From: Endomicrobiales bacterium | GTDB taxonomy: Bacteria; Elusimicrobiota; Endomicrobiia; Endomicrobiales; JAFGIL01 | Assembly (NCBI GenBank): GCA_016929635.1 | Contig: JAFGIL010000050.1 | Location: 22,067-86,066, forward strand | Direction: 5' to 3' | Length of the DNA stretch: 64,000 nucleotides | In this document: one piece after another, positions 985-27,722 of the stretch | Layout: each line of letters starts with the position of its first letter | Position numbering within the stretch: position 1 is the stretch's first letter | Notes under the pieces: generated by a model | Seen by the model: the letters and a program-made list of their open reading frames with translations, nothing else | Database searches by the model: none | What the model was told of the DNA's origin: nothing | Program-made: the position numbers and the translations under genes

Positions 985-1013
985 GAAAATTTCAGAACAG
1001 GAGGAACTAAAAT

Positions 1014-1931: not shown

Positions 1932-1955
1932 CTTTGTCAAGGATATTTTTTAGCC

Positions 1956-2912: not shown

Positions 2913-2966
2913 CGCCTGTTTTATAAAACCGCAATGGATTATCTTATCCATTGGGGGAGGATTTAA

Positions 2967-4730: not shown

Positions 4731-4735
4731 AAGAG

Positions 4736-5128
4736 GTGAGTGTGAAGGGGAAGAAATTAAAAATTCTGGTTGTTGATGATGAAGCCGGCGTAAGAGACTT
4801 GATAACATATCTTTTAGAATCCATGGGTTATATTATTCGTACTGCAAAAGATGGTTTGGAAGCTGTTGAGATTGTAGCAAACGAGGAATTCGACATAATT
4901 TTTTTAGATGTACACATGCCCAACATGAAAGGTACGGAAGCTCTGGAATCCATAAAGAAAATACGGCCTAAACAGACGGTAATTATATTCAGCAGCAGTT
5001 CCGATCCTTATTATGTTTTTGAGAGTCAGGCAAAACAAAAAGGTGCTTTTGATTGTCTTTATAAACCTTTTGAATTGGATGATCTGCTGAATGTCATTAA
5101 CAAAGCAGTTAACAATAAAGTGAACTAA
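4736..5128 (+). CDS. single-domain response regulator (CheY-like receiver)
   Basis: ILVVDDE, FDIIFLDVHMPNMKG and YKPF are canonical receiver residues. The start may instead be the GTG at 4742, which sits 5 nt after AAGAGG. Confidence 0.8.
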   Translation: MSVKGKKLKILVVDDEAGVRDLITYLLESMGYIIRTAKDGLEAVEIVANEEFDIIFLDVHMPNMKGTEALESIKKIRPKQTVIIFSSSSDPYYVFESQAKQKGAFDCLYKPFELDDLLNVINKAVNNKVN

Positions 5129-5139
5129 AGGAAACGAAG

Positions 5140-6291
5140 ATGAAAATTGACGAAAAAGGTAAAGCAAAAATACTCATAATAGAAGATGAAAAAGGTATCC
5201 GCAACTTTTTGAGTTACGAATTGTCACAATTGGGTTACGTGGTAAATGTTGCCGATGACGGCGAAGAAGGTGTCGGGAAAGCCAAAGAGATGAAATATGA
5301 CGTAATAATTTGCGATATAATGATGCCGAAGTTAAATGGCCTGCAGGCTTTGAAGATTATCAAAAAAGTATCGCCTGAAACCGAAGTGATAATGATTACC
5401 GGATATGCTACGGTGGAAAATGCCCTTCAGTCAATGAGGGACGGTGCCTATGGATTCATCCAGAAGCCGTTTAATACACAGGAGCTTTTTACTTTAATTG
5501 AAAAAGCGCTTGAGAAAAGCGAGTTGAGAACATTAATTGCTATTTATCAAAGCAGTCAAGCGGTTTTTTCAAAGCTCAGGCTTGAGGAACTTTTGCCTTT
5601 GATGATAAAACTATTAAAGGACGCGGTTAAAGTAAGCGATATTGTTCTTTTGCTTTTTGACCATGAAAACCAGCCCTATTTGGCCGCAGCCACTTTCTCT
5701 CTTACAAATTATTCCTTAAAAGATTTATACATTTCCATGGCTAACCGTTTATACTCTTCGGGTAAACTGCAAAAATCTTCTTTAGTTATTGATTTAAACC
5801 AGGAAAAAAGCACCTTATTCCCGGGATTGAAAATAAATCCTGATATGAAGTATTTAGCGGTTTATCCCATAACGCTGCCAAACAGAAAATTTGGGACACT
5901 TCTGGTATCACGTAAGAAAGAGTTTGAAAATTTTAATCAGACCGATAAACACAGCCTTTCTATTTTTGTTTCTCAGATGGCCCAGTCAATTGCCAATACG
6001 AAATTATTTGAACAACTGGAAATAAAAATTTCCGAACTGGAAAGTACTAACATGGAACTGGAGCAGATTAAGAAACAATTGGATTCTGCAACAATGTTGT
6101 ATCAAGCAGGCTCGGGAGTGGCTAAGGAGCTTGATATCAGCTCTGCAAAAGTCTTATCTGTTTTAAAAAGTATTTTAGAAATGGATAAATTGCCGCAGGA
6201 AATAAAGAAGCAAATCATGAAAGTTAAGGAAGAAGTCATAAGTTGCCAGGAAAAAGTAAAGAAAGATATTAAAAAAGCAAAAATCCAATAA
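5140..6291 (+). CDS. response regulator: receiver domain + uncharacterised (GAF-like?) domain + C-terminal coiled coil
   Basis: ILIIEDEKG, YDVIICDIMMPKLNG, IMITGYA and QKPF. The roughly 250-aa C-terminal part has no motif I can name. Confidence 0.7.
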   Translation: MKIDEKGKAKILIIEDEKGIRNFLSYELSQLGYVVNVADDGEEGVGKAKEMKYDVIICDIMMPKLNGLQALKIIKKVSPETEVIMITGYATVENALQSMRDGAYGFIQKPFNTQELFTLIEKALEKSELRTLIAIYQSSQAVFSKLRLEELLPLMIKLLKDAVKVSDIVLLLFDHENQPYLAAATFSLTNYSLKDLYISMANRLYSSGKLQKSSLVIDLNQEKSTLFPGLKINPDMKYLAVYPITLPNRKFGTLLVSRKKEFENFNQTDKHSLSIFVSQMAQSIANTKLFEQLEIKISELESTNMELEQIKKQLDSATMLYQAGSGVAKELDISSAKVLSVLKSILEMDKLPQEIKKQIMKVKEEVISCQEKVKKDIKKAKIQ

Positions 6292-6395
6292 ACTTCGATT
6301 TACTTGCAGTTTAGTCCTGCCTGAATAGGAACCCCAAAAACCTAAAAATCTTGATTTTTTTTAGCTCGTTGTATATAATATTTGTATATAATAAT

Positions 6396-7124
6396 ATGAA
6401 AAAGTATAAATACTTATTAGCATTATTGTTTATAGTAAAATATCCTGTTTTTGCCCAGGTATCCTTTGAAGGCAATCCTTTGATAGATGGGGTTAAAAAT
6501 CCGGCAGAGGTGGTTGTAACCGGAAGAAGCCCTGTTTTTTCATGGGAGTACGCAGGGCTTGTCAGCTCATTTACCATAACTGTAAGCGATGACAGTATAT
6601 TTTCAAATTCGGGTGAGATCTGGAACCATGTGGGTTCAACCACACTGGCCAATACTATTAACGGAGTGACACGTGTGGCGTATAATACTGATGGGGGCGC
6701 TGCTCAACTCCAGCCGGACAGAACATATTATTGGCAGGTTACGATATACGGTGAAGGTACCCAATCCACAAAAGTCAATCTTGTGTTTTCATCAGTTTCT
6801 TCGGAAGTAAATATGCCTTCGGGCAATTTAAGCCTCGCGGTTGACTGGAATAATCCATTCAATCCTTCGATTGGACAAACCACTAAATTCAGGTTCACTA
6901 CGCGAAACAGGGACAGGACGGTTCAGGTTCGAATCTTCACTTTATCCGGAGAGCTTGTAAAAACCTGGGCTGAACAGACAATGCTACAAAATGCCTGGTA
7001 CTCCGTTGAGTGGGACGGAAGAAACGATGACGGAAAAATCGTCGCACGCGGCATATACCTGGTAAACCTTATGGATGTGGGTGAGAAAAAAGGCGTTACG
7101 GAAAAAGTCATTGTGATTAAATAA
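6396..7124 (+). CDS. secreted protein with C-terminal FlgD-Ig / T9SS-sorting-domain-like module
   Basis: Start moved to the ATG at 6396 (MKKYKYLLALLFIVKYPVFAQ signal peptide). The C-terminus NPFNPSIGQTTKFRF...VQVRIFTLSGELVKTW...WDGRNDDGKIVARGIYLVNL...KVIVIK matches the FlgD_ig/Por_Secre_tail pattern. Confidence 0.6.
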   Translation: MKKYKYLLALLFIVKYPVFAQVSFEGNPLIDGVKNPAEVVVTGRSPVFSWEYAGLVSSFTITVSDDSIFSNSGEIWNHVGSTTLANTINGVTRVAYNTDGGAAQLQPDRTYYWQVTIYGEGTQSTKVNLVFSSVSSEVNMPSGNLSLAVDWNNPFNPSIGQTTKFRFTTRNRDRTVQVRIFTLSGELVKTWAEQTMLQNAWYSVEWDGRNDDGKIVARGIYLVNLMDVGEKKGVTEKVIVIK

Positions 7125-9094
7125 TGAGAAAAATATTTATATTCTTTTGTTTGCTGGTCTTGCCTGTTGAAATTTTTGCTGCAGGTACAACCGGGGCGGA
7201 TTTTCTAAAAATAGGTCCGGCAGCACGCCCGTGCGGTATGGCAGGCGCTTTTGTTGCAGTAAGCGATGAAACAAGCGGGATGTTTTGGAATCCCGCGGGC
7301 CTTGGATTTATGGTTTCTCCTGAACTGCAGACAACCTACATTCTCTGGCCGGGAGATCTTTATTACAGTTATCTTGCATATTCACATCCGACCAAGCAGG
7401 GGATATATGCCCTGGGTTTGCAATACCTTTCCGGTTCAAAAATAGAGAAATTCGTAAACGGCGCAAGCTTTGGAAGCTTAAACTATTATGACGGAGCCGC
7501 AAACGTATTGTTCTCGAGGCGTTTAAGAGAGACCCTGTCAGCAGGAGTAAATTTAAAGTACATAAAAAGCCATTTAGACAGCAGTGACGAATCAGCTCTT
7601 ACGGGAGACGTCGGGCTGTTGTATCGGACGTTTGAAGAGAGCTTTTCCTTTGGCTTATCCGGGAAAAACCTTTTTGGCAAGATCGGCAAGGACGATCTTC
7701 CGCAGGAGTTTAAAACAGGGATAGCTTACAAGTCAGATCTTCCCCAGCATTATTCAGATATATTATTCTCTATCGAAGTTGCCCAGCCGAAGGACAGCCC
7801 TGTCTACTACGCAGCAGGAATAGAGCACTGGGGAGGAAGGACTCTTGGGCTTCGCATTGGATATAAGTACATCCCAGATGATAAACAAAGAAGCAGCATG
7901 GATAATCTTTCTCCGTGGAGTGCGGGATTAAGCATAAGAGTACAAAGCTGTGCGATAGACTATTCATACCAGCCCATGGCCGCGCTGGGGAATGCGCACA
8001 GGATAACCCTTAACTGGAGGGTGTTTGGCTGGAAAACAAAGATGCGTGTAATATCCACAAAGATAAAGGCTGAACCTGTTATTTTTTCGCCGAATGGAGA
8101 CGGAGCAAAAGACAGCGTGTTCTTTATTCCTCAGGTTACAGAGATCAAAAATGTTTCTGACTGGAAACTGCAGATTAAAAGTTTGGATAACATTATAATT
8201 AAGGAGTTGTCAGGAAAAGACCTTTTGCCAAAAATACTGACATGGGAAGGCCAAACCGAGGATGACGGTCAGGTTGTTGAAGGTAAATATCATTACCAGT
8301 TTGTAGTTGAGGGGGATTCCAGAAAACGGGCCGAGTCTGGCACAGGAGAGATAACAGCTGATCTTACAGTTCCTTCTGTATCACTGGTTATTTCAACCGA
8401 AACTTTTTCACCCAACGATGACGGTTTCCAGGACAGCACAACCTTTTATGTTTCCGTAAGCGACATTTACGGGATAGACCAATGGAAGTTAAGCATTATT
8501 AATAGCCAAAATAAAAATGTAAGGGTGTTCGTTTCTACATCCAGCGAGCCTGTTGAAATTGTATGGGACGGTAAGGATGATTATTATGGAGCAGTTGTAC
8601 CTGAAGGAGAGTATAAGGTCCAGCTTCAGGTATGGGATGTTGCGGGAAATAAAGAAGTTGTTGAGTCCCAGCTTAAAGTTCAGGTTCCCGTTAAAATCAA
8701 AGAAATAATAAAGGAAGTAAAAGTAGCCGAAGACGACAGGGGGCTGGTAATAAACCTTTCAAGCAATATTCTTTATGAACGGGGGAAATACGAGGTTCAG
8801 GAAAAAGCTTATAAAGCTTTAAATGAAGTTGTGAACCTTTTAAATTCATATCCCAAAAACAACGTTTTGATAGAAGGGCATACCGATTCCATAGGAAGTA
8901 AATCCAACAACCGCACAATTTCAAGTAAACGAGCATGGGGTGTTTACAGCTATCTTGTAAAACACGGTGTTGCGCCTGCACGTCTGAAGGTTAAAGGATG
9001 GGGGGAAGAAAAGCCCATCGCTGCCAACAGTACCAGCGAAGGCAGGGCAAAAAACCGCAGGGTAGATATAATAATTCTCAAAAGTACTCAATAA
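7124..9094 (+). CDS. outer-membrane fusion protein: PorV/PorQ-like beta-barrel + 2 FlgD-Ig repeats + OmpA C-terminal peptidoglycan-binding domain
   Basis: TAATG overlap with the upstream gene. N-terminus GADFLKIGPAARPCGMAGAFVAVSDETSGMFWNPAGLGF has the PorV-family signature. Repeats IFSPNGDGAKDS and TFSPNDDGFQDS. OmpA_C: IEGHTDSIGS..NRTISSKRA..NRRVDIIIL. Confidence 0.7.
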   Translation: MRKIFIFFCLLVLPVEIFAAGTTGADFLKIGPAARPCGMAGAFVAVSDETSGMFWNPAGLGFMVSPELQTTYILWPGDLYYSYLAYSHPTKQGIYALGLQYLSGSKIEKFVNGASFGSLNYYDGAANVLFSRRLRETLSAGVNLKYIKSHLDSSDESALTGDVGLLYRTFEESFSFGLSGKNLFGKIGKDDLPQEFKTGIAYKSDLPQHYSDILFSIEVAQPKDSPVYYAAGIEHWGGRTLGLRIGYKYIPDDKQRSSMDNLSPWSAGLSIRVQSCAIDYSYQPMAALGNAHRITLNWRVFGWKTKMRVISTKIKAEPVIFSPNGDGAKDSVFFIPQVTEIKNVSDWKLQIKSLDNIIIKELSGKDLLPKILTWEGQTEDDGQVVEGKYHYQFVVEGDSRKRAESGTGEITADLTVPSVSLVISTETFSPNDDGFQDSTTFYVSVSDIYGIDQWKLSIINSQNKNVRVFVSTSSEPVEIVWDGKDDYYGAVVPEGEYKVQLQVWDVAGNKEVVESQLKVQVPVKIKEIIKEVKVAEDDRGLVINLSSNILYERGKYEVQEKAYKALNEVVNLLNSYPKNNVLIEGHTDSIGSKSNNRTISSKRAWGVYSYLVKHGVAPARLKVKGWGEEKPIAANSTSEGRAKNRRVDIIILKSTQ

Positions 9095-15458: not shown

Positions 15459-16154
15459 ATGCCTAGAACAGCAAGAGTAACAGTTGAAGGGTATCCTTAT
15501 CACATAATGCAGAGGGGGAACTACGGGCAGGATATTTTTAAAACTGACCAGGACAGGCATCAGTACCTTGCCTGGATAATCGAATACAGTTTAAAATACC
15601 ACTTACAAATACTCGCCTTTTGTTTGATGAATAATCATGTTCACTTCACAGCAATACCGCAAAAAAAAGACTCTCTTTCAAAGACATTTAACATGGCACA
15701 TATGAGATACTCCCAGTATGTAAACAATAAAAATAAGACAATGGGGCATTTGTGGCAGGGGCGTTTTTATTCATGTATGCTTGATAAGAAGCATCTATTG
15801 GCAGCGTCAAGATATGTAGAGAGAAATCCTGTAAGAGCGGGTTTGGCGAAAAGGCCGTGGGAATGGGAATGGTCCAGTGCTAATGTTCACATCCATGAAA
15901 TCAGCGATAAAAATAGTCGGTTTTTGAAACTTTTTGAATATGTTGATTTAACCCCTCAGCAGTGGAAAGGCTATATAAGTGAAAACGAAGATGACTTCTT
16001 TGTCGAACAGATAGAGAGGAATACAATTTCAGGCAGGCCCGTCGGCGACGCTGATTTCATAAAAAAGTTAAAGGATAAATTTGGAATAAAAATTGAGGAG
16101 CCTGTCAGGGGCAGGCCGAAAAAGACAAGAAAAACAGGTACCGCGCCTATTTAA
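15459..16154 (+). CDS. IS200/REP-associated (RayT-type) Y1 HUH transposase
   Basis: YPYHIMQRGNYGQDIF, HUH motif LMNNHVHF, WQGRFYSCMLD, and catalytic-Tyr region SRYVERNPVRAGL. Confidence 0.8.
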   Translation: MPRTARVTVEGYPYHIMQRGNYGQDIFKTDQDRHQYLAWIIEYSLKYHLQILAFCLMNNHVHFTAIPQKKDSLSKTFNMAHMRYSQYVNNKNKTMGHLWQGRFYSCMLDKKHLLAASRYVERNPVRAGLAKRPWEWEWSSANVHIHEISDKNSRFLKLFEYVDLTPQQWKGYISENEDDFFVEQIERNTISGRPVGDADFIKKLKDKFGIKIEEPVRGRPKKTRKTGTAPI

Positions 16155-16569
16155 TGAATTCTTTTATCTTTTTTTCTAATAAATTAAAGTCTATAGGCTT
16201 TGCAATAAGATATCTGGCGCCTGAGAGAAGAGATGCTTTTCTTGATACATCATCCACTAAAAATGCTGCTACATGAATTATAGGTATATGTTTAAGGTTT
16301 TCTAACGAATTTATCCAGCGGGCAAATTCAATTCCCTGGATGTCAGGCAGCATAATATCGAGCAGAATCAAATCCGGGATGTTGTTGTCCAGCCATTTTC
16401 TTGCCGAAACCCCGTCACCTTTTAGTTCATAGTCATACCCCAGGCTTTCAAGAAAAGTCGCCATGAGCTTCTGTATCGATTCGTCGTCATCTATAACCAG
16501 TATTTTCTTTTTTTGGACATCCGCCGTCTCTGCTTTTTTGACTTTTTCTTTTTTTCCCTTATTTTTCAT
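16147..16569 (-). CDS. single-domain response regulator
   Basis: ILVIDDDES, PDLILLDIMLPDIQG and AKPIDF. It overlaps the upstream HAMP gene by 11 nt. Confidence 0.8.
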   Translation of the reverse strand: MKNKGKKEKVKKAETADVQKKKILVIDDDESIQKLMATFLESLGYDYELKGDGVSARKWLDNNIPDLILLDIMLPDIQGIEFARWINSLENLKHIPIIHVAAFLVDDVSRKASLLSGARYLIAKPIDFNLLEKKIKEFIK

Positions 16570-17155
16570 TTTCGTCCTCTTTTTTCAAGTGGCTGTCCGT
16601 AGCTGCAAAATGTGAAGTCACAGCCAGAAGATAACTCTTGATCTCAATAAACCTTTTTGTAAGTGTCTCTATGGTTTTTGCCGAATGGTCTTCTCTTATC
16701 ATATCGTTGCATTCATTTATTTTTTTTACCGCCATAGAAACCAGTTTCCTGTCGCGGGTAATAAGCTTTTCCAAAACGCTGATTGTCTCGTTATACTCTC
16801 TTACAAAATCTTTTAACAGGTCTCCTCTTCTAATCTGGATATGATGAAAGTTCCCGGCCCTGATGTCATACAATGCCTTTTCTATTTTAATTATGGGCCC
16901 TGCAACTTTGTGCGACAGATATATGCCGATAATAAAGTTTATCCCTATTATAAAAAACAGGATACCGAATAGCGTGGCGAAAAAGTCAAAAACCATGGTG
17001 GTTTTCTGCCAGTTCGAGGCTATGTTTACAAGTTTGTACATGCCCCATCCGAAAAACGTGCCTTCAATGGTAACCGCAAGAATTATTATTATTACAAACC
17101 AGAACTGGAACTTTTCTTCTATTATATAATTGGTTCTGAAAGTGCTTATCTTCAT
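16559..17155 (-). CDS. 2-TM membrane protein with HAMP-like linker and no output domain
   Basis: Two hydrophobic helices, then KVAGPIIKIEKALYDIRAGNF...DLLKDFVREYNETISVLEKL. Confidence 0.5.
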   Translation of the reverse strand: MKISTFRTNYIIEEKFQFWFVIIIILAVTIEGTFFGWGMYKLVNIASNWQKTTMVFDFFATLFGILFFIIGINFIIGIYLSHKVAGPIIKIEKALYDIRAGNFHHIQIRRGDLLKDFVREYNETISVLEKLITRDRKLVSMAVKKINECNDMIREDHSAKTIETLTKRFIEIKSYLLAVTSHFAATDSHLKKEDENEK

Positions 17156-17172
17156 CTGTCTGTCTCCCGCTT

Positions 17173-18111
17173 CTACCTGTTTAATAGAATGATATCTACT
17201 GTCTCTATTGATTTGGGGGTTATCTTTCCTTCCTCCTGTACGGTTTCATCCGTACGGATTAACATTTTTTTCAGCTTAGAGGCTATTTCTTTTGAAGTTA
17301 TTTGTGCGATTTCCTGCTCTTTGCTGTTTACAACCACCTTAACAGGGAACGCAAAATATTTCTTTTTAATGATATCGGATGCTTCCTGAAGAAGCTCTTG
17401 TCCCAGATTGCTGAACTCCTGTTCTTTTAAAACTTCAGGGCGTTCGTCATACAGATTTTTTAAATTCAGGCTTATAGTATAACCGTTATCCTTTTGATGG
17501 GCAAAACCCATTATAACAAACGGATTTTCAACAGTTGTATGAAGTTGATTTTTTGTGTCGTAATACCGCAAAATAGTTGAATACGAATAGCCAACTTCTA
17601 TTATATCCCCGCTGCTGTTCCTTCCGTTAAAAACAATGCTTTCCGGGGGCAGTCCGCTCCCCGAGTATTCCTGAAACGTATTTCCCGAATCGTCTGCAAT
17701 GACAAACTCCCACCTGGCAAGCTTTTTTGCTTCTTTTTTATTTGGTTCCTTAAATATGGATTCCAGATCGCTAAGGGGGGAAAACACTTTTACTGTTTCG
17801 CTGTAAATATGGTGCGAGCGGGGTATGATTACCTGAGGGCTTTTCACGGTTTCCGGAAGTGAATCATAAGTCTGCTTTTCCCATCCCGTAGGTTTTTTTG
17901 TAAATATCTCGGTTTCTGTTACCAGGCTATCCATTAATTCCTTGTCCTGATCAATAGGTATATTAAGCGGAGGTTTGGTGCTTTCCAGCTCCAGTACTTC
18001 CTTGCCCTTTATAATAACATCCGGCAACTCTCCCTCACTGTCCGCACCTGATTGAAGGTCAAAACATATGAGAAGAGCGAAAACAAACATTAAAATACTG
18101 AATTTTTTCAT
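17173..18111 (-). CDS. secreted protein with one degenerate FlgD-Ig-like unit
   Basis: Signal peptide. WEFVIADDSGNTFQEYSGSGLPPESIVFNGRNSSGDIIEVGYSYSTIL follows the repeat pattern of the 1015-aa neighbour. Confidence 0.5.
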   Translation of the reverse strand: MKKFSILMFVFALLICFDLQSGADSEGELPDVIIKGKEVLELESTKPPLNIPIDQDKELMDSLVTETEIFTKKPTGWEKQTYDSLPETVKSPQVIIPRSHHIYSETVKVFSPLSDLESIFKEPNKKEAKKLARWEFVIADDSGNTFQEYSGSGLPPESIVFNGRNSSGDIIEVGYSYSTILRYYDTKNQLHTTVENPFVIMGFAHQKDNGYTISLNLKNLYDERPEVLKEQEFSNLGQELLQEASDIIKKKYFAFPVKVVVNSKEQEIAQITSKEIASKLKKMLIRTDETVQEEGKITPKSIETVDIILLNR

Positions 18112-18131
18112 TTTAAACTCCTGATATATAT

Positions 18132-19274
18132 CTACTGCAGAATGTATTTAAAAGTAACGAACCCCCATTGGTCTCCCTTGTTTTTTTCAATAGGATTGAA
18201 TACCCATTTTTTAATTGCCTCAACGGCAAGCCGGTCAAGCTTACTGTAACCGGAAGTGCGTTCTACGAATACTTTGTCTCTTATAAGGCCTTCGGGCGTA
18301 ACAAAAAACTTTATTACAACATTGGCTTCGATGTTTTTTGCCCGTGCCCAGTCCGGATAAACGGGAAGGTACGATTTGACTATTTTTCTCTCGCTGACAG
18401 GGCCAGCAATCTCAACGGATTTTTTACTGACCTTTGCTTCTTTTACCGTCCCTTCAGACGTGGTATAGGATTTCTTTGCAACCGGCGTAATTACGTTTAA
18501 ATCCTGCACTTCGGCTTTCTTTAATTTCTTAAGAGTTACTCCCTTGCTGTAGCCTATACTCCTTCTTTTTGTGTATCCCATGGTAGATTTCCCTGTTACG
18601 GGGCCCTTTTTACCCAAGGAAATTGATGATTCCTTTAATTGTGATGTCCCGGATACTTTTTTAGGGGATTCTATCTCTATATTTTTTATGTCCTTGAAAG
18701 ATGCTGAAGGAGATTTTTTGGCCAGGTTTATGGGTTTACCTGCATCGGGACTCTGAACGGCAACCTTGCCTACTTCGGAGATATCTATCTCCGGTTCATC
18801 AGGAGACTGCAAGGAAAGCTGTCCCGCACTTTTGCCTTGCGTTTCCGTATCAGGTACAATTTCGGACAATTGTGTCTCCGGGGTATAACGGTCTTTCTGG
18901 TCAAGATTTATCTCGGGCCTTGACTCTAAATCGACCCTTTTATCCAGGTCTATTTTCTGGGATTGATTAATATCTATTTTTTGCTCCATATCGGGTTCTG
19001 CTATTTCCCTAAGGCCCTCTTCTTTCTGGGGGAGAAACGCCATTTTTATAAAATCCAGGACGTTCTTCGGCGGGGCCTGTGCAGGAATCTCAAGCACGTC
19101 ATGTATCGGCACGTCCGCCTCTATTTCTATAAATTCTATATCCTCAAGCAGTATCATGTTTTCGTTCTGTATCCCCTTTAAGTGCAGGAATGATGCGTAT
19201 AATAGTAAATGAAATATAATCGAAATGATCATTGATACGCTTATATTTCTTTTATCATAAGTAATTGCGTACAT
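18132..19274 (-). CDS. TonB/TolA-like energy transducer
   Basis: N-terminal TM helix, a long charged and Pro-containing linker, and a TonB_C-like end: YPDWARAKNIEANVVIKFFVTPEGLI...LDRLAVEAIKKWVFNP. Confidence 0.75.
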   Translation of the reverse strand: MYAITYDKRNISVSMIISIIFHLLLYASFLHLKGIQNENMILLEDIEFIEIEADVPIHDVLEIPAQAPPKNVLDFIKMAFLPQKEEGLREIAEPDMEQKIDINQSQKIDLDKRVDLESRPEINLDQKDRYTPETQLSEIVPDTETQGKSAGQLSLQSPDEPEIDISEVGKVAVQSPDAGKPINLAKKSPSASFKDIKNIEIESPKKVSGTSQLKESSISLGKKGPVTGKSTMGYTKRRSIGYSKGVTLKKLKKAEVQDLNVITPVAKKSYTTSEGTVKEAKVSKKSVEIAGPVSERKIVKSYLPVYPDWARAKNIEANVVIKFFVTPEGLIRDKVFVERTSGYSKLDRLAVEAIKKWVFNPIEKNKGDQWGFVTFKYILQ

Positions 19275-19276
19275 AA

Positions 19277-19699
19277 TCAGCCTCTTTGTTTCTGTTTAAC
19301 CGCGATAGATACTGTTTTAGCCCCGCTTTGTTTGCATATCTGCATTGCATCTAAAAGCCATTTATTGAGTGCCTGCTGGTCTGCCCTGATAATTACGTAT
19401 TTCTCGCTGCTTTTTTTTAATTTCTGTTGCAGAGCATATGATACTTCGTTAAAACTTAGTATTAAGTCATTTACTGCCCACGCTCCGTCACTGGTGATTG
19501 ATATGGTTATATTTTCTCTTTCCTCGTCCTCTCCTGTATATGCTTTTGGAATCTCAACATTAAGTTCAGGTTCGACAAAAAGTGGAGCAGTTATCATGAA
19601 TACCATTACCAGGACAAGCGCTATTGCAACAAGAGGTGTTATCTCAAGTTCCGTTATTGTGGAGTCAGTAAACCTGTTCTGTAAATGAGATTCTGGCAT
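19277..19699 (-). CDS. ExbD/TolR family protein
   Basis: ITPLVAIALVLVMVFMITAPL TM helix plus a periplasmic domain, in an operon with an ExbB gene. Confidence 0.8.
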   Translation of the reverse strand: MPESHLQNRFTDSTITELEITPLVAIALVLVMVFMITAPLFVEPELNVEIPKAYTGEDEERENITISITSDGAWAVNDLILSFNEVSYALQQKLKKSSEKYVIIRADQQALNKWLLDAMQICKQSGAKTVSIAVKQKQRG

Positions 19700-19708
19700 A
19701 AAAATTTC

Positions 19709-20098
19709 CTATTTTTTTCTTAAGAGAGCCACTCTCTTGGCTCCCTCCTGACGCGCAATATCAAGAATGTTTACAATCTGCTTGACCTGATTAGTGGGCG
19801 AGGCAAGAAGCATCACCATCTTGTCTTTGCTTTTCGGTATGGCATTTTTCAGGGCTTGCGGCAGCTCATCCCACAAGACACTTTTTCCGTTAACCTTGAT
19901 TTCTCCTACAGCATTTAGATTTATGGTCACATTCTCATCCTGCGCAACCTTGCCTTTGCTTTCTCCCATTCTGGAGGAGGTTATGGTAATCCCGGTCTGC
20001 GCTATGAAAGGCGCGACTACCATAAATATAATAACCAGCGTAAGGGATACGTCGACTAACGAGGTTAAATTAATTTTATTTATAGAGTCATCCTGCAT
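19709..20098 (-). CDS. ExbD/TolR family protein (second copy)
   Basis: INLTSLVDVSLTLVIIFMVVAPF followed by an ExbD-type periplasmic domain. Confidence 0.8.
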   Translation of the reverse strand: MQDDSINKINLTSLVDVSLTLVIIFMVVAPFIAQTGITITSSRMGESKGKVAQDENVTINLNAVGEIKVNGKSVLWDELPQALKNAIPKSKDKMVMLLASPTNQVKQIVNILDIARQEGAKRVALLRKK

Positions 20099-20107
20099 AA
20101 ATAATCC

Positions 20108-20719
20108 TTATTCTTTATACAAATATACCAGTATCCTCATCTGATTTGCTTCCATCATGGCGGATATGGCTTTGATCTTTTTCATAAAGAAGTTGTAGAT
20201 AACAACCGAAGGAATAGCGATTGCAAGGCCTGCTGCTGTGGTTATCAGTGCTTCGGATATTCCAGCAGCAACAACTGACGGGCCGCCTGAGCCGGAAATC
20301 GCCAGGTCATGAAACGCCTTTATTATTCCTATAACCGTACCGAACAGCCCTATAAAAGGACAGATTGTACCCATAGTACCCAGTACAGTAACGAATTGTT
20401 CCATTTCCAGGGATTTGTCCAGACGGGTTGCATTCATGAGTTCTATTAATTGTTCCTTTGGTTTCTCATAGTTTAGAATAGCCACTTCTGTAAGCGCCGC
20501 CAGAGGGCTGGCCGAGGATTTGCATAAATCCAGAACACCTTTGTAATTTTTATCCTCTATAAGCTTTTTAAGGATAGTCATAAAGTTTTCCACATCAATG
20601 TGTATCTTTCTAAAATACCACCACCTCTCAATAGCAAAGCAGACGGCAATTACCGAGCAGAGGATAAGTATTATCATTGTAAAACTTCTCCGGATTACTT
20701 CAAGCAGGTCTACTGACAT
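20108..20719 (-). CDS. MotA/TolQ/ExbB proton-channel protein
   Basis: Three TM helices. GTMGTICPFIGLFGTVIGIIKAF and EALITTAAGLAIAIP are ExbB/TolQ hallmarks. Confidence 0.85.
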   Translation of the reverse strand: MSVDLLEVIRRSFTMIILILCSVIAVCFAIERWWYFRKIHIDVENFMTILKKLIEDKNYKGVLDLCKSSASPLAALTEVAILNYEKPKEQLIELMNATRLDKSLEMEQFVTVLGTMGTICPFIGLFGTVIGIIKAFHDLAISGSGGPSVVAAGISEALITTAAGLAIAIPSVVIYNFFMKKIKAISAMMEANQMRILVYLYKE

Positions 20720-20755
20720 AAAATGCCTCCTTATTCGTTTGTGGCTTTTGGTATT

Positions 20756-23700
20756 TTATTTTACAAGTATTATCTCAACCCTTCTATTCTTTTTTCTTCC
20801 TTCAGGTGTATCGTTGGTTGCTATGGGTTTCGTATCGCCGTATCCCTTTAAAACAAACCTTTCGCGCGGGATTCCGGAATCTTTTATTATAAAGTTCATT
20901 ATTGACTCTGCCCTTTTCTCTGAAAGTATCTGATTGTTGGGAAACTCCTGGTTGCTGATAGGCACATTATCCGTATGACCTTCAATGCTTACAGTCCTGT
21001 CAGGATACCTCTTAATCAGGCTTGCAGCTTTCTGCAGCGTGGCTTTTCCTTCATCTTTTATGCTGGCTTTTGCCGTATCGAAAAGGAACTCGGCTGCAAG
21101 AGAGATAACCATGCCTCTTTTTGTTTCCGCGAAGGAATATGTCGGGGCCAGCATCTGAATGGGTTTCTCTTCCGTAAGCACTGCTACCATGGGTTTTGAT
21201 GTATCTATTTCTATTTCAACCGGGCTGCTTTCTCCCATGTTTCCGACTTCATCCCTGATGTACAGTTTGGCCGTGTATTTTCCGTCAAGAAGGCTGGCAC
21301 CCCTGTCATTTTTTCCGTACCATATAATGTTTTGAGATGGCCTTCCGCTTCCCTTGAAAACTCTTCTTGCAGGGTTCGGGCCTATCGCTTCAAGTTTCCA
21401 GTCCATAATATCGCTTGCGTCGTTATATTCAAGCGTAAACGTTGCAGTGTCTTTTTCTCCGTCTTCGTTAGGGGAGAAAAGCGTGGGAGATGCGGATAAT
21501 TTTACCTCAGGAGCGGTGTTGTCAATCTTTACCCTTTCTTTCAAGGTAGTAGTTTTGTTACCTACAATATCCTCTGCCATGAAAATGTAGTTGTAAACAC
21601 CGTCCTTAAGAGATTGTTTTTCGTTGTCTTTTCCGTCCCACAGCACATTAAGGGGAGGATTGTCCTTTCCTGAGTAGCTTCTGCACAATTTATCCTTAAC
21701 ATCGTAAATTCCTACCTTCCAGGAGACCGCAGGGCTTTCGTCCTGATACACAAGAGCAAAAGTTGCATTGTCCTTGAAATCGTCGCCGTTCGGGGAAAAT
21801 ATGCCGGGCGAAACGCTTATTGACAGCTGGGGCTTTGTTGTGTCTATTATTATATTCTGGGCTACGGTTTCCACTTTATTGCCTGCTTCATCGTCAACAA
21901 CGAAAATAAAGCTGTACCTTCCGTCTTCAAGAGTCCTTTTATCGTCATTTTCTCCCAGCCATGTAACTGATGAGGGGGGATTGCCCAGCCCGTTAAACGT
22001 ACGCATGGCGACCCTGTTTTTTTCGATCCTCAAAGCCCAGCTTTTAATTTTATTAAAGGCGCTTGCGGTAAAAGTGAACTTCACTTCGTCCTTAAAACCG
22101 TCCGAATTCGGAGAGAATATCTCCAAATCCGATTTCACTGATATAACAGGTTTTGTTGCTCCTATAACAACCTTCTGGGTCTCGCTGGTTATGCTGTTTG
22201 CAACCATGTCTTCCGCAAATACATACCATAAGTAAGTACCGTCAGGGAGAACCACCCCGTCGTCCCCTTTGCCGTCCCATACAATTCCTTTCTTTTCTAT
22301 CTCAATCCCTTTAAACGTCCTGACTGTTTTGCCTGATTCGTTCTTAATGCCCAGCTTCCATTCCTTAAGAGGGCTTGCATCGTATATTTCGAGAGAAAAC
22401 TCAACTTCATCCAGGATTCCGTCCCTGTTGGGGGAGAAAAGCATCAAAGAAGTTTTTGAATGTATAATAGGAGCGGTTCTGTCCACCTGTATGGACTCGG
22501 GGGTTGTTTTTGTTTTATTTCCAGCCACGTCCTCTGCTTCAATCAGATAGTTAAAAATACCGTCCGCAACGTTATTTTCTTCATCGTCTTTACCGTTCCA
22601 TTTGATAATGTCTTTAGGATTATCGGATTTTCCTTCAATTGCCTTTATCTGTTTTCCTGTATCGTTTATAATCGAAAGCTTCCACATAACCTGGTGGCTG
22701 TCAGTAACGTTATAAGATAAAGTTGTTATGTCGAATATTTTGTCTCCGTTAGGGGAAAATATTTTATTGTCCGCATTAACCCTGCATATAGGGGGGGTGC
22801 TGTCTAAATCAATTATCACGGGCAGGGTTGAGACTGTATTGCCCGCGCTGTCTGTTTCAGACAGGACCAGATTATACGTGCCGTCCGTGCAGGTTTTTCC
22901 TTTTTCATCCAGGCCGTCCCAGATGATTCTCTGGGGAGGGGCTTTTTTCCCGCTGAAAGTTCTTACGATCTTGCTTTGGGAGTTTAGAACGTTTAATTTC
23001 CAGTGTTCCACGGCGCTGACGTCAGCAGCGAAAATACTTATATCGATTATGTCTTTAATGCCGTCATTATTCGGGGAGAATACTTTTGGTTTGGCTTTTA
23101 TTGAAGATACCTTCGCCTCGCGCACTAGCTGCAGCTGTTTTGTTGGTGTCTGGTCCCGGTTTCCTGCATTATCCTGGGCAATTAAATAAAAATTATACAT
23201 TCCGTCATTAACGTCCAGCCCAAAATCGTCTTTGCCGTCCCATATTATTGCCGGTTTCACGTCTCCTACCCCGGAAAACGATTTTACTACGTTATTATCC
23301 TTGTCAGCGATGTTCAGGAGCCAGCTGTTTATTCCGTTTAGATCCTGGGAGGTTAGGGTAAATGTGGCTTCGTCCTTTACTCCGTCCGCGTTAGGCGAAA
23401 AGATATCAAAGTCAACATCAGCAGAAGCCTTGGGTTTTGTATGATCGATAACTATTTCCTGGGGTTCCAGGGTTTCCTCGTTACCCGCATTTGTAATAAC
23501 GCTGAAAACATAATGATACACCCCGTCAAGGACCAGTATCTTGTTTAGGTTTCTTCCGTCCCACTCAAGGCGGGCGGGAGGCTGCCCGTCGCCTTTGAAT
23601 ATCCTTAATATCTTGTTGCTTTTATCCTTTATCGTAAAAGTCCATTTACTTATATCTTCCTTGGGAGTGCTTACTTGAAGTTTAAATATAGCAACGTCGT

Positions 23701-23803
23701 TAATACCGTCGTTGTTCGGAGAAAATATGGTCTTTGCGCTGCCGGCTGAGAAACACAGCATAAGCAGGCATATCATTGAAATTATTTTCTTGTTTATTTT
23801 CAT
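20756..23803 (-). CDS. 1015-aa secreted protein: 8 tandem FlgD-Ig-like repeats + OmpA C-terminal peptidoglycan-binding domain
   Basis: Eight units start with (I/V/L)FSPN.DG..D and contain W.L.I......V..F.G...PP..I.WDGKD..G....DG.Y. The C-terminus is IEGHTDNVPI...LSEKRA...NRRVEIILVK. Confidence 0.85.
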   Translation of the reverse strand: MKINKKIISMICLLMLCFSAGSAKTIFSPNNDGINDVAIFKLQVSTPKEDISKWTFTIKDKSNKILRIFKGDGQPPARLEWDGRNLNKILVLDGVYHYVFSVITNAGNEETLEPQEIVIDHTKPKASADVDFDIFSPNADGVKDEATFTLTSQDLNGINSWLLNIADKDNNVVKSFSGVGDVKPAIIWDGKDDFGLDVNDGMYNFYLIAQDNAGNRDQTPTKQLQLVREAKVSSIKAKPKVFSPNNDGIKDIIDISIFAADVSAVEHWKLNVLNSQSKIVRTFSGKKAPPQRIIWDGLDEKGKTCTDGTYNLVLSETDSAGNTVSTLPVIIDLDSTPPICRVNADNKIFSPNGDKIFDITTLSYNVTDSHQVMWKLSIINDTGKQIKAIEGKSDNPKDIIKWNGKDDEENNVADGIFNYLIEAEDVAGNKTKTTPESIQVDRTAPIIHSKTSLMLFSPNRDGILDEVEFSLEIYDASPLKEWKLGIKNESGKTVRTFKGIEIEKKGIVWDGKGDDGVVLPDGTYLWYVFAEDMVANSITSETQKVVIGATKPVISVKSDLEIFSPNSDGFKDEVKFTFTASAFNKIKSWALRIEKNRVAMRTFNGLGNPPSSVTWLGENDDKRTLEDGRYSFIFVVDDEAGNKVETVAQNIIIDTTKPQLSISVSPGIFSPNGDDFKDNATFALVYQDESPAVSWKVGIYDVKDKLCRSYSGKDNPPLNVLWDGKDNEKQSLKDGVYNYIFMAEDIVGNKTTTLKERVKIDNTAPEVKLSASPTLFSPNEDGEKDTATFTLEYNDASDIMDWKLEAIGPNPARRVFKGSGRPSQNIIWYGKNDRGASLLDGKYTAKLYIRDEVGNMGESSPVEIEIDTSKPMVAVLTEEKPIQMLAPTYSFAETKRGMVISLAAEFLFDTAKASIKDEGKATLQKAASLIKRYPDRTVSIEGHTDNVPISNQEFPNNQILSEKRAESIMNFIIKDSGIPRERFVLKGYGDTKPIATNDTPEGRKKNRRVEIILVK

Positions 23804-23819
23804 ACAGACACTCCCCTTT

Positions 23820-26800
23820 TTATTGCCCGGAGTTGATTTTTATTTTTAGTGCCGAAATCCTTGCTTTAACTGCATCAAGCCAGTCAGGTTTGTGATTCAT
23901 CTTGGAAGCTTTACTGTAAAGCTCCTGATACAATGCAAGTGCATCCATGGTTTGACCCCTGTTCTCGTAGTATTCTCCGAGCCTGATCATCGCATTCAGC
24001 GACCAATTGTCTATATTTTCCCGGGATACAAGCTTTTTATACTCTATTTCAGCGTTTTGGTAATCGTCCATGTTATGATAATTTTCCGCAATACGGAAGG
24101 TCAGGTTCTTCCATTCCTCGCTGTCATTCTTTACTTTCTGTCTGTTTTCGTTAAAACACTCGATTGCGCGCAGGTACTGGTGCTGTTCCTCATACATTGA
24201 GGCGATTTGCATACCCAGTTCGAAATCATCCTCTTTTTTAGCGTGTTTCTTCCTGTATGTATCTAAAATACTTGCAGCTTTCTCCCAGTTTTCAGTTTCC
24301 TTATACGCCATTGCAGCGTTGTAAAGAGCAGAGCTGATAAACTCCGTGTCAGGATATTTCTGTGCCAGTGCTTCAAAGGACTGTGCTGCCAGTTCATACT
24401 CCTTTATTTTAAAGTAAGATGACGCCAAGTAGAAATATGCATACTGTATGCGACTGTCTCCGGGGAAATTTTCCACAAACCGCTTATATGCGTTAGCTGC
24501 GTCGTTATATCTTTCCAGTTTATAGTATGAATTGGCAAGATAATAATTTGAATCAGCAAATTTATCGCTTTTCTCCAGCTCGCTCATGGTGCTTTCAAGT
24601 ATATCAATTGTTTCGTTGTATTTTTTGTTCTCAAATTTATTTTTTGCAAGCCTGAACCTGATTTCTATTGATATTGCATTACTGTATCCGAACAGCATTG
24701 ACAGGTTGTTTAACGCCGCAACAGCAAGGCTTTCCGCTTCAGGCACGTCCAGGAGGGCAGTAAGGAAATCCAGTGCATCTTTGGCTTCAGGTTCATCCGT
24801 AAAATTTTCTATTAATTCTTTTAATGCTTTTACCGCCAATGTATTGCTTTTTGAATTGTAATAACATTGTGCTATGCGAAGGTTTGCCTGTGCCAGTTCG
24901 TTTTTATCTTTTGCATATTTTTCTATTATCTGCGTGTATGTCTGGATGCATTTGTCGTAATGCTGAGCTCTGAAATACGTATCAGCAACTTTCCACAAAG
25001 CTTTTGACGCCTCAGGCGACTGCGGATATTTTCTTGCTATCTCTTCCCATATATCTATTGCCTGTCCAAAGTATTCAAGCTGGTAATAGCTGAGGCCCGC
25101 GCGGAAAGCAGCGCTTGGAGCAAGAGAGTGACCCGGGTTGTTCCTGTAAAAATCCTCAAAAATGCTTAAAGCTTTTAGGTATTCCTTTCTGTTAAATAAG
25201 GTATTGGCCAGTTCATACCTATTGTATAACGTTAGTTCTTCATCAGCGTTTTCCTGGAAAGAGTTGGTTTGAATTTTATCTCTTAATTTATTTGCCTCAA
25301 GGTAATCCTTGCTTAGAAAGTATGCCCATGCAGCGCCGTCCTGTGCATATACAAGAAGCGGGTCTGCAGGATAATGGGATTTTATTAAGGAATAAAGTTC
25401 ATTGGCCTCTTTGTAAAGCCCCTGTTTAAGAAATCCTTCCGCGATATATAGATAAGTTATCAGTCTCCATGAGCTTGTCTGCAGGGGGAAGTTGTTCAGG
25501 AGGTAATGATATCCCGACACAAGAGCTGCGTCATTGCCGTTTAAGTAGTTTGCCCTGCTCATAAGGGCAAACGCGGATTCCCGGAACTCCGACGGTTTCG
25601 TGGCGTCAATCGCCCTTTGATATGCAAGAACCGCATCATCATACTTTTCAAGGTTGCTTAAAACATTTCCCAATAACAGCTCAACCTGGGGAAGAAGCTT
25701 GTCTGCTGCAAACATTTGTTTAAATGTAACAAGCGAAGCTTTTGCATCCTGCATCTTGCCCATTTTATAATAGCACCAGGCCAGTTTATACTGCGCGACA
25801 GGAGCATACCTGTTTTCGTGAAAAGAGGATACCGTATCGGCATAAGCAAAGCTTGCTTCTTTATATCTTTTCTCTGTTAAAAACGATTCTCCAATTAGAT
25901 ATAAAGCCAAAGGAGAAAACTCTGATTTTGAGTCTATCTGAAGGAATGACTGGAAGTTGCTTCTTGCCAAAAGATAGCTCTTGTTTTTCAGGTATGAACA
26001 TCCTATTTTGAATATCGCAGGGCCCCGCAGGACGCTTTGAGGGAAAAGCTGCAGAAATTTTTCGTAGGTATTGATTGCACTGATATAGTCTTCAGCGAAG
26101 AAGAAGGCTTCTCCGATGTGATAGTACGCTCTTTCCTGGTAAGCTTCGTTGTCAGGATACTTGTTTATTAACTCCCTTAACTTCTCAACCGAGAACAGGG
26201 GTTTTTTTAATTGGATTAAAATTTTGGACTGGAACAGGAGTGATTCGGGAGACTCCACTTTTTCGAGGTTTTCAAGGGCGGTTTCGTATTCGCCCAGCTC
26301 AAAGTTTGCAAGTCCGAAGACGTAGTTAAACCTCTTATCATTGTTGTAAGCGGGCTGCTTTTTTACAATTTCCTGAAGCAGCTCCTGTGCTTTTTTACAG
26401 TCTTTAAGTATCACGTAACATTGAGCTTTTAAAAGACGGATTTCGTATATAAGATATCCGTTTTTATATTTTGATTCTGCCTTTTCGAGCACATCCAGTG
26501 ACTGCCGGTAATCACCGTCATTGTAATAAATTTCTGCAATGCTTAACGCGGCGCTTTGTGCCTGCGGGTGCGACTGGTATTTGCCGGTGATACGCTGGAA
26601 CTTCTTTAATGCCTCGGAAGATTTGGGATCCATGTCATAGAGGCACTCTGCAATCATAAACTCGGCCTCTGGCACCAAATCATCCCTTGGAAACTGTTTA
26701 ATGAATATCTGGAATTGTTTTATACATGCCTCTTTGTTGGTTTCAAACATTTTTGAGGCTCTCTGGAAAAGCTCAAGCGAAGATACTTTGGGTTTATCAG

Positions 26801-26882
26801 CGGCAAAGACATTACCATCAATAAGGAATATTGTTGTAATTATTAAAATTATTAATATGGCGTATTTCAGTTTTTCATGCAT
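23820..26882 (-). CDS. 1020-aa secreted TPR-repeat protein (CpoB/YbgF-like repeats)
   Basis: Signal peptide. The whole length carries repeated A..Y.LA.CYY..G.Y..A...F..F....P motifs. Confidence 0.8.
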   Translation of the reverse strand: MHEKLKYAILIILIITTIFLIDGNVFAADKPKVSSLELFQRASKMFETNKEACIKQFQIFIKQFPRDDLVPEAEFMIAECLYDMDPKSSEALKKFQRITGKYQSHPQAQSAALSIAEIYYNDGDYRQSLDVLEKAESKYKNGYLIYEIRLLKAQCYVILKDCKKAQELLQEIVKKQPAYNNDKRFNYVFGLANFELGEYETALENLEKVESPESLLFQSKILIQLKKPLFSVEKLRELINKYPDNEAYQERAYYHIGEAFFFAEDYISAINTYEKFLQLFPQSVLRGPAIFKIGCSYLKNKSYLLARSNFQSFLQIDSKSEFSPLALYLIGESFLTEKRYKEASFAYADTVSSFHENRYAPVAQYKLAWCYYKMGKMQDAKASLVTFKQMFAADKLLPQVELLLGNVLSNLEKYDDAVLAYQRAIDATKPSEFRESAFALMSRANYLNGNDAALVSGYHYLLNNFPLQTSSWRLITYLYIAEGFLKQGLYKEANELYSLIKSHYPADPLLVYAQDGAAWAYFLSKDYLEANKLRDKIQTNSFQENADEELTLYNRYELANTLFNRKEYLKALSIFEDFYRNNPGHSLAPSAAFRAGLSYYQLEYFGQAIDIWEEIARKYPQSPEASKALWKVADTYFRAQHYDKCIQTYTQIIEKYAKDKNELAQANLRIAQCYYNSKSNTLAVKALKELIENFTDEPEAKDALDFLTALLDVPEAESLAVAALNNLSMLFGYSNAISIEIRFRLAKNKFENKKYNETIDILESTMSELEKSDKFADSNYYLANSYYKLERYNDAANAYKRFVENFPGDSRIQYAYFYLASSYFKIKEYELAAQSFEALAQKYPDTEFISSALYNAAMAYKETENWEKAASILDTYRKKHAKKEDDFELGMQIASMYEEQHQYLRAIECFNENRQKVKNDSEEWKNLTFRIAENYHNMDDYQNAEIEYKKLVSRENIDNWSLNAMIRLGEYYENRGQTMDALALYQELYSKASKMNHKPDWLDAVKARISALKIKINSGQ

Positions 26883-26888
26883 AATTTA

Positions 26889-27470
26889 TTAAATTTCCGT
26901 AAATACCTTTTTTATATTCTTAATTAATGCTTCCTTTTTAAAAGGCTTATAAAGTACTTCATTAGCCCCTGCTTTTAAAATCTTTCTTTTGCGTTCTTCG
27001 GTATTATGTGCAGCTATAGCTAAAATTTTTATATTTTTGTTTCTTTTGTGGATTGACCTGCAGATTTTAAGGCCTTCATTATCCCTGGGTGTAATGTTTA
27101 CAACTACTAAGTCTGGGTTGAACTCGCTGATTGCCTGGCCTGCCTGGAAACCGTCAGAAGCGGTTTTTGTTAAATATTTATACTTATTTATGGTATTTCT
27201 GATTGATTTTTCAATATTTTTTAAAGTTTTATGATCCTTATCCACAATAAGCACCTTAATAAATGTGGATTTTGTTGATTCAAGGTCTTTGGGTATGGGA
27301 AAGTCATTTTTCTTTAAAAATTCAATCAAATCTTCTTTTGTTATTCTTCTATGGCCGCCCAGGGTTTTATATGCAGTAAGCTTGCCGGAGTTTATCCAGT
27401 CCACAATCGTTGGTGTACTGACACCGCAAATCCTGCTTATCTGGTATGTTGTGAAGTAAATACGTTCCAT
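26889..27470 (-). CDS. excisionase/MerR-type HTH + pseudo-receiver domain regulator
   Basis: HTH_17-like YQISRICGVSTPTIVDWINSGKLTAYKTLGGHRRI. In the receiver, the phospho-acceptor position reads PDLVVVNITP (Asn, not Asp) and the Thr/Ser position reads AIAAH. The conserved Lys (YKPF) is retained. Confidence 0.7.
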   Translation of the reverse strand: MERIYFTTYQISRICGVSTPTIVDWINSGKLTAYKTLGGHRRITKEDLIEFLKKNDFPIPKDLESTKSTFIKVLIVDKDHKTLKNIEKSIRNTINKYKYLTKTASDGFQAGQAISEFNPDLVVVNITPRDNEGLKICRSIHKRNKNIKILAIAAHNTEERKRKILKAGANEVLYKPFKKEALIKNIKKVFTEI

Positions 27471-27722
27471 AGGAATATGGTTTTTTTATAGAATCTTATG
27501 AATTTGCATTATTTGGTGTTTTTTGTGTTCTAAACTAACTATAACAGACAAACCTGTCAGTGTCAACATTTTTAATATCTGCCAAAAACCCGGATATTTT
27601 GACACGAAAATCAGAAGAAGAAGTTTTTAAGTTGAAAATAATTGCTAAAATCAGTATAATAATGATTCATTGTGAAAATGAGTACCCCGGTTTTCTGCGA
27701 AAACTGAACGAAGGGCGAAGAA

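Follow-up and report, generated by a model that had tools for sequence, protein, structure and literature searches.

An Elusimicrobiota operon encoding a conserved, paralogous motor of the Tol/Ton type and secreted partner proteins

The ten genes of the operon

The window analyzed here, a stretch of 64,000 nucleotides (nt) from the genome of an Endomicrobiales bacterium (assembly GCA_016929635.1, contig JAFGIL010000050.1), contains an operon that encodes a motor of the Tol/Ton type together with its own secreted partner proteins. This operon is conserved in related bacteria, is paralogous to other systems of this type in the same genome, and has no receptor gene. The source genome that was searched comprises 2.23 Mb on 77 contigs, and the window is located on a 96-kb contig, C75. 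Ten open reading frames, g1 to g10, occupy positions 16147 to 27470, all on the minus strand and with intergenic gaps of -11 to +36 nt, in agreement with a preliminary description of this DNA that had reported ten co-directional, tightly packed genes. The gene list given there was confirmed, with Pfam and NCBIfam profile searches of the kind that it had recommended. The ten genes are bracketed by a promoter-like site (27538-27566, minus strand; TTGACA, 17 nt, TATAGT, with TG; 11 of 12 matches) about 68 nt upstream of g1 and by a terminator-like hairpin (16099-16117, minus strand) about 30 nt past the g10 stop codon, the former being a consensus match only and the latter a pattern match only. 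Homologues are labelled Elusimicrobia. An IS200-like Y1 transposase gene (231 amino acids [aa], PF01797; 15459-16154, plus strand) runs convergently to the operon and shares 8 nt with the 3' end of g10.

Four consecutive genes encode the motor and its transducer. The g4 product (20108-20719) is an ExbB/TolQ-family proton channel with the MotA_ExbB Pfam domain, and g5 (19709-20098) and g6 (19277-19699) encode two ExbD/TolR paralogues with the ExbD Pfam domain. These assignments hold at the family level, whereas the equivalog scores were all found to be below the respective cut-offs: g4 reached 114.1 bits with the TolQ model TIGR02796 (cut-off 221), g5 and g6 reached 57.5 and 66.3 bits with the TolR model TIGR02801 (cut-off 127.3), and the ExbB and ExbD equivalogs gave the same outcome for g4 to g6. 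The proton-carrying transmembrane Asp is present in g5 (LVDVSL) and is kept in its orthologues. It is also kept in most orthologues of g6, including that of L095, a relative of the same family, but is replaced by Ala in the window (PLVAIAL) and in L019, L109, and L110. This pattern suggests a recurrent loss of the Asp in one member of the ExbD pair, and if the two paralogues do pair, a single transmembrane Asp would be available in the system of the window. Two near-identical operons from different assemblies, L001 (14386-14148 region) and L101, differ in ExbD1, with LVGV in the former and LVDV in the latter; the difference may stem from an error in sequencing or represent a true variant that inactivates the protein.

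The transducer, g7 (18132-19274), is a TonB/TolA-like protein of 380 aa. The SxxxH motif in its transmembrane helix is kept in all orthologues and is followed by an acidic V-[DE]-[LF]-[IL]-[DE] motif, located where a "motor box" has been placed (PMC12204202). A charged linker of about 260 aa separates this N-terminal helix from a TonB_C domain (residues 304-377; nt 18144-18365), which scored 51 bits with TIGR01352, above the cut-off of 27.1. AlphaFold2 predicted a confident fold for the C-terminal domain and a conserved strand that precedes it (VEIxGPL), with predicted local distance difference test (pLDDT) values above 90 for the TonB_C fold.

Two of the secreted proteins are of unusual size. 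The first, g2 (23820-26882), is a tetratricopeptide repeat (TPR) protein of 1020 aa with YbgF/CpoB-like units; the YbgF model TIGR02795 matched it in 11 stretches with 264.7 bits, but the protein is an array of 1020 aa, unlike a CpoB of about 250 aa, and a canonical YbgF is encoded on contig C56. The second, g3 (20756-23803), is a secreted protein of 1015 aa for which eight FlgD-type immunoglobulin-like (Ig) repeats and a terminal OmpA domain had been predicted, and both features were recovered. The repeats (nt 21152-23725) start at residues 27, 135, 242, 349, 456, 563, 669, and 776, have a period of 106-108 aa, and match FlgD_ig, CHU_C, and Big profiles; since their pairwise identity is 25-39%, the array is, judging from its sequence, old and diverged. 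In the OmpA domain (residues 907-1007; nt 20783-21085), the canonical Asp and Arg of peptidoglycan binding do not vary among 13 orthologues. No conserved lipobox Cys was found in the signal peptide across these 13 orthologues, and by this sequence criterion g3 is therefore not an outer-membrane lipoprotein of the Pal type. The preliminary description had named g3 as the Pal equivalent; the true Pal is encoded on C56.

The third secreted protein, g8 (17173-18111), has 312 aa and no match in Pfam, and a sequence search of the PDB with the g8 profile returned nothing significant. An alignment of 24 family members revealed the order signal peptide, box-like motif, poorly conserved linker with KPxLxI, Ig unit, and C-terminal domain ending in ERVEIxxxNR. 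The box-like motif has the consensus G-x-L-x-E-V-V-I-K-G ([DE]V[VI][IV]K[GA] after the signal peptide) and reads GELPDVIIKG in the window (nt 18004-18033). It resembles the N-terminal boxes of the receptors (IPVIVTASK, LDEIVVRE, EVFLSLS) and of TolB (ADVYLSLSA) of the same genome and appears, by this resemblance, to be TonB-box-like. In the AlphaFold2 model, most of residues 100-312 have pLDDT values above 90 and residues 20-44 stay below 50; the linker is disordered. In Foldseek searches, the C-terminal half gave matches to MotB, MotS, and further domains of the OmpA-like type (e.g., 3oon with a TM-score of 0.76), and the middle part matched FlgD. Using BLASTP, the Ig unit was found to align to every repeat of g3, which agrees with the previous account of g8 as a secreted protein with one degenerate copy of the g3 unit. 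One of these alignments continues past the repeat to where the OmpA domain of g3 begins, and g8 thus looks like a single-repeat relative of g3.

The remaining three genes are related to signal transduction. The g1 product (26889-27470) combines an excisionase/MerR-type helix-turn-helix domain (HTH_17) with a domain matching the Response_reg profile, which is a pseudo-receiver because Asn replaces the phospho-acceptor Asp (LVVVN). Two paralogues of this HTH_17-receiver type occur elsewhere in the genome (C75:19541 and C21:5645). By contrast, g10 (16147-16569) is a single-domain receiver in which the phospho-acceptor Asp is intact (LLD). Between g8 and g10, g9 (16559-17155) encodes a membrane protein of 198 aa in which two hydrophobic helices are followed by a HAMP-like segment; the protein also has a coiled coil but no output domain. 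It had no match in Pfam, HAMP included, and its sole database support is a weak match to the CpxA profile at positions 158-250 (E 1.9e-4). The region 1-6300 of the window and the upstream part of C75 are dense in single-domain and hybrid receiver genes.

Conservation and variants of the operon

The phylum was sampled with 301 genomes, of which about 48 have a full-length homologue of g8 (E below 1e-20); in the same search the homologue was missing from most of the small genomes of the window's own order. Distant members of the g8 family carry names that read only "bacterium" or Elusimicrobia. Twenty regions of 15-20 kb were then fetched around g8 matches in the genomes of relatives. All twenty, and additionally L001, L019, and L115, contain a constant core that consists of a TPR protein of 1000-1300 aa, ExbB, two ExbD, the TonB-like protein, and a g8-like protein, which correspond to g2 and g4 to g8. 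An orthologue of g2 is present in all fetched loci that reach upstream of the motor genes, and in variant B it is located immediately 5' of ExbB. The preliminary description had called for a survey of synteny across related genomes, and these data reveal that synteny is conserved in part of the Elusimicrobiota.

The same description had regarded the machine as built around the giant Ig-OmpA protein, which is not the case. Because g3 is missing from 13 of the 20 fetched core loci, it is an accessory module and not the center of the machine. Seven fetched loci and the window represent variant A, in which the Ig-OmpA gene is found between the TPR gene and exbB wherever this stretch is covered, along with g9 and g10; in L098, a member of this variant, g9 and g10 are located between exbB and exbD. 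Three genomes hold two copies of the core, one with and one without the Ig-OmpA protein. Of the signaling genes, g9 co-occurs with g3, g10 is found with variant A and also in some core-only loci, and g1 was seen among the examined loci only in the same-family relative L095. A homologue of g3 with 43% identity is present in the same nine-gene order in another Elusimicrobiota assembly. In two loci, L114 and L115, a PorV/PorQ-family barrel with a C-terminal FlgD-Ig domain is encoded immediately upstream of the TPR gene (PorV_fam, 95 and 122 bits, cut-off 90), and this barrel gene is preceded by genes for giants of 1893 and 1803 aa, respectively. The core thus occurs in at least three architectures, namely, variant A, the core alone, and the core with a PorV-family barrel and a giant upstream.

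A survey of named genomes with the g3 alignment provided, among the matches listed, two useful loci, one labelled Elusimicrobia and one mislabelled as Clostridia. The contig of L019 (DAOVHK010000053.1), which carries the label Clostridia bacterium, contains the stretch from g3 to g10 with a short g3 fragment that is 56% identical to g3 of the window; it probably stems from a member of the Elusimicrobiota and was assigned to the wrong genome in binning. Two other candidate relationships were rejected. Distant g2 matches of about 1000 aa in Bacteroidota (P0145, P0153) do not represent this system, because they have no ExbBD neighbors, and no relationship to g9 was found for the 191-aa gene that follows the g8 homologue in L115.

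Related Ig-OmpA giants of 1300-1770 aa also occur in Spirochaetes, where they have neither TPR nor motor neighbors and serve as a negative synteny control. In Alkalispirochaeta (L002, 15371-16810), the gene that follows an Ig-OmpA giant of 1776 aa encodes a POTRA-domain protein of 479 aa and not a motor component. The spirochaete proteins are relevant to the idea that g3 functions chiefly in adhesion or as a surface antigen, like Lsa66, and is located beside a motor operon for unrelated reasons. Lsa66 of Leptospira (LIC10258), reported to bind extracellular matrix and plasminogen (PMC3130794), likewise has FlgD-Ig-type repeats followed by an OmpA domain, and Lsa66_OmpA (NF053608) is the best NCBIfam match of g3. 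However, the score of 276.9 bits is far below the equivalog cut-off of 700, the number of repeats and the genomic context differ, and g3 has neither a barrel nor a lipobox for transport to the cell surface. Moreover, every variant A locus that covers the stretch has g3 inserted between the TPR gene and exbB; in the window, 16 and 36 nt separate it from these two neighbors. We therefore consider a primary function of g3 in adhesion highly improbable.

Relationship to known energy-transducing systems

The genome contains further genes of the Tol-Pal and Ton families, and these differ from the operon. Contig C56 encodes Pal (TIGR02802, 134.8 bits, cut-off 125.35) and YbgF (100.3 bits, cut-off 90.1), along with a TolB-like protein (323 bits, cut-off 343) and TolA-like and TolQ-like proteins. 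On contig C22, a receptor-like protein of 773 aa is followed by ExbB, two ExbD, and a TonB of 195 aa. In a maximum-likelihood tree, the ExbB proteins of the present operon type form a clade of their own with a support of 98/96, which excludes the TolQ-like and ExbB paralogues of this genome. Because Tol-Pal is encoded on C56, the receptor-linked Ton set on C22, and ExbB belongs to a separate clade, the operon is a third, paralogous system of the Tol/Ton type and is neither the cell's Tol-Pal system nor its receptor-linked Ton set. The preliminary description had reasoned that a separate Tol-Pal cluster together with a TonB-dependent receptor immediately outside the window would reduce it to an ordinary uptake system; a separate Tol-Pal set does exist, but an adjacent receptor was not found, and the statement made there that no such receptor gene is nearby is confirmed by the profile search, with zero PF00593 matches on the 96-kb contig. 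The C56 genes are arranged in the order pal, ybgF, tolA-like, tolB, and tolQ-like (C56:17298-21130) with no tolR beside them, and the only free TolR-like gene (C31:150400-150801) adjoins a single-domain receiver gene. Elusimicrobia have been reported to have a Tol-Pal system with a lipoprotein CpoB (PMC12204202).

The operon has many features in common with Tol-Pal. Both have a channel of the TolQ/ExbB family along with TolR/ExbD proteins, and in both the transducer combines an SxxxH helix and a long linker with a C-terminal domain of the TonB/TolA type. TPR units of the YbgF/CpoB type, found here in g2, and a peptidoglycan-binding domain of the OmpA type, found here in g3, are likewise shared. 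In addition, g8 is a secreted partner that resembles TolB in carrying, close to its N terminus, a short and conserved motif that is strand-like. However, the TolB propeller is absent, as profile searches of the ten proteins detected no such domain. The OmpA protein has 1015 aa and eight Ig domains, is no lipoprotein, and is dispensable in most relatives, g2 has about four times the length of CpoB, two different ExbD proteins are present, the operon has its own signaling genes, and all TolQ and TolR equivalog scores are below the cut-offs in a genome with a genuine Tol-Pal set elsewhere.

Ton systems share with the operon the motor families, the TonB_C domain, and a duplicated exbD, the latter also seen in the receptor-linked cluster on C22. 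They differ from it in that there is no receptor in or near the operon, that the motor genes are strictly linked to TPR and Ig/OmpA-like proteins, and that the ExbB and ExbD models are not reached. In Vibrio, TonB2 clusters include TtpC and TPR proteins as accessory factors, and the operon could analogously be an ordinary duplicated Ton system that energizes unlinked TonB-dependent receptors or other outer-membrane transporters, with the TPR and Ig proteins as accessories. Its transducer does pass the TonB_C model and conserves SxxxH, and the genome has seven PF00593 receptors, all encoded on contigs other than C75, plus the receptor-like gene on C22, so several receptors may share energizers. 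This explanation nonetheless appears distinctly unlikely: a receptor-linked ExbB-ExbD-ExbD-TonB set is already available on C22, no TonB-dependent receptor was seen beside the core in 23 related loci with flanks examined, g2 and g8 are inherited strictly together with the motor, and the long linker of g7 together with the YbgF-like TPR is more Tol-like than Ton-like.

Another relevant comparison is that with gliding machinery. The ancestral core complex of the Agl-Glt machinery (aglRQS plus gltD/E/C/G) likewise comprises, all encoded in a single operon, one TolQ-like protein, two proteins of the TolR type, a transducer resembling TonB, and large secreted TPR proteins (PMC3169522), a similarity that concerns composition only and not orthology. 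The resemblance to Agl/Glt-type machines noted in the preliminary description thus stands for gene composition only; with the AgmX/PglI C-terminal domain model NF033768, the one family model used, g7 scored 20.9 bits (cut-off 40). Glt barrel genes, an FHA domain, and cytoplasmic coupling genes are also missing, and Ig/OmpA-like partners have not been reported for the Glt core, a complex with no known function outside Myxococcus (PMC3169522). The succession of a gene for a TPR protein, one tolQ-like gene, two different tolR-like genes, and a transducer gene is a recurring layout of uncharacterized force transducers (PMC12204202). Among these, the von Willebrand factor type A (vWA) transducers of the Planctomycetes-Verrucomicrobia-Chlamydiae group share the operon layout and an SHLS-type helix, and their function is not known (PMC12204202); they differ from the present system in having a vWA instead of a TonB_C domain at the C terminus, in that an Ig/OmpA-like protein follows here, and in belonging to another phylum.

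A surface-protein or gliding-type machine, analogous to the type IX secretion system (T9SS)/GldLM or to Agl-Glt, has consequently to be weighed. The motor, the TPR scaffold, and the TonB-like arm would then power secretion, attachment, or movement of surface proteins with Ig or C-terminal-domain (CTD) features on PorV-family barrels, and g3 would be a periplasmic docking rod. The mirroring of the Glt core and the PorV-family barrel and giant directly upstream of the TPR gene in L114 and L115 are in line with this possibility, as is the score of the whole g3 protein with the T9SS type-B sorting model TIGR04131 (67.5 bits, cut-off 35), which has its best stretch in repeat 1, although the CTD-like repeats of g3 are internal and in tandem. 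A gene pair at 6351-9094 of the window (plus strand) points in the same direction. Its first gene encodes a secreted protein of 257 aa that ends in a FlgD-Ig/CTD-like domain and overlaps, stop with start, the next gene (7124-9094), whose 656-aa product combines a PorV/PorQ-family barrel (NF033709, 149 bits, cut-off 90) with two FlgD-Ig domains and an OmpA domain. This genome encodes at least 14 PorV_fam barrels, many of which have long extensions, and other core-carrying genomes encode 9-32. However, 10 of 12 sampled core-negative Elusimicrobiota genomes hold 4-10 such barrels, and since core-negative genomes carry up to 10, PorV-family barrels are in general independent of the core. The operon itself contains neither a barrel nor a cargo gene, of the 13 examined loci with the core alone, 11 have housekeeping genes upstream, genes of the GltA/B/H/K type were not encountered, and g7 does not reach the AgmX/PglI cut-off. 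A search for SprA_N found nothing, with the control genomes likewise silent. Taken together, we regard a surface-protein machine as rather unlikely.

Proposed function and significance

The operon is best classed within the Tol/Ton kind, as a new variant of it, and no description of it was found in the literature searched. Our preferred reading is that of a third Tol/Ton-type machine driven by the proton motive force that acts on its own periplasmic partners and performs mechanical work on the cell envelope instead of importing nutrients, a reading that we hold to be evenly balanced between right and wrong. We infer as follows how the proteins contact each other, that the two ExbD form a heterodimer, what g7 acts on, and which physiological output results. 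An ExbB pentamer with the ExbD1/ExbD2 pair would convert proton flow into movement of g7, which would be coupled to the motor via its SxxxH helix and would span the periplasm with its linker. No TonB-dependent receptor would be opened; the targets would instead be the proteins encoded in the operon itself, namely, g2 as a giant YbgF-like TPR scaffold and g8 as a small adaptor. With its Ig domain, its degenerate OmpA-like domain, and its TonB-box-like strand near the N terminus, g8 may have a role similar to that of TolB. In variant A, g3 would add a peptidoglycan-anchored rod of eight Ig domains, and this rod may be controlled by g9, g10, and the putative regulator g1. The output would be the tethering or organization of the outer membrane, of peptidoglycan, or of outer-membrane protein complexes.

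Several observations weigh against this proposal. In at least two loci the core adjoins a PorV-family barrel and a giant, an arrangement that suits a surface-protein machine as well as a tether, and the motor may also energize unlinked outer-membrane proteins. The OmpA-like domain of g8 is without the peptidoglycan-binding Asp and Arg (VNSK versus GHTD in g3, and SKEIA versus EKRAE in g3), and the core-only variants carry no peptidoglycan anchor in the operon. The sole sequencing run that contains the operon DNA is the source sediment metagenome, and none of the words sampled from the operon DNA was found in the sister metatranscriptome. A further point concerns the contact between g7 and g8. 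In L098 these genes are in frame with a single TAG codon between them, which represents a natural read-through chimera and was therefore used as a docking model. The C-terminal domain of g7 and the N terminus of g8 were modeled as a single-chain monomer with the signal peptide as linker, on an alignment (A7) of g7 rows only that provides no depth for g8; mixed g7/g8 alignments, which MAFFT misaligned, had been discarded. In this artificial AlphaFold2 model, with its g8 part lacking alignment depth, the TonB_C domain was folded, whereas the box was disordered, with pLDDT values below 50 and no strand, an outcome that lends docking no support. Following this result, we have lowered our expectation that the g8 motif functions as a TonB box, and now consider it doubtful, if still a serious possibility.

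A more specific form of the preferred reading would make the operon a third class of transducer. The TonB-like arm would pull g8, an analogue of TolB built from other folds, via the box-like strand and thereby control the tethering of the peptidoglycan-anchored g3 rod or of PorV-family barrel complexes, gated by the HAMP-like protein and the receiver, which would be wired directly to the motor. In this full form, the scheme is on the improbable side.

Tol-Pal and Ton are the two textbook routes by which inner-membrane energy is transmitted to the outer membrane in diderm bacteria. It has been argued that more systems with 5:2 motors remain to be found (PMC12204202), and the operon is a candidate for such a system, as a conserved six-gene module that lacks a receptor and combines a TonB-type arm with a TPR scaffold of its own and a new partner of the Ig/OmpA-like kind. 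This module occurs in a deep-branching and almost uncultured phylum. If the contact between g7 and g8 is true, the capture of a box strand, as employed by TonB and TolA, would have been reused with a third kind of partner, and this would provide a handle on how the Elusimicrobiota organize an outer membrane that is rich in PorV-family barrels.

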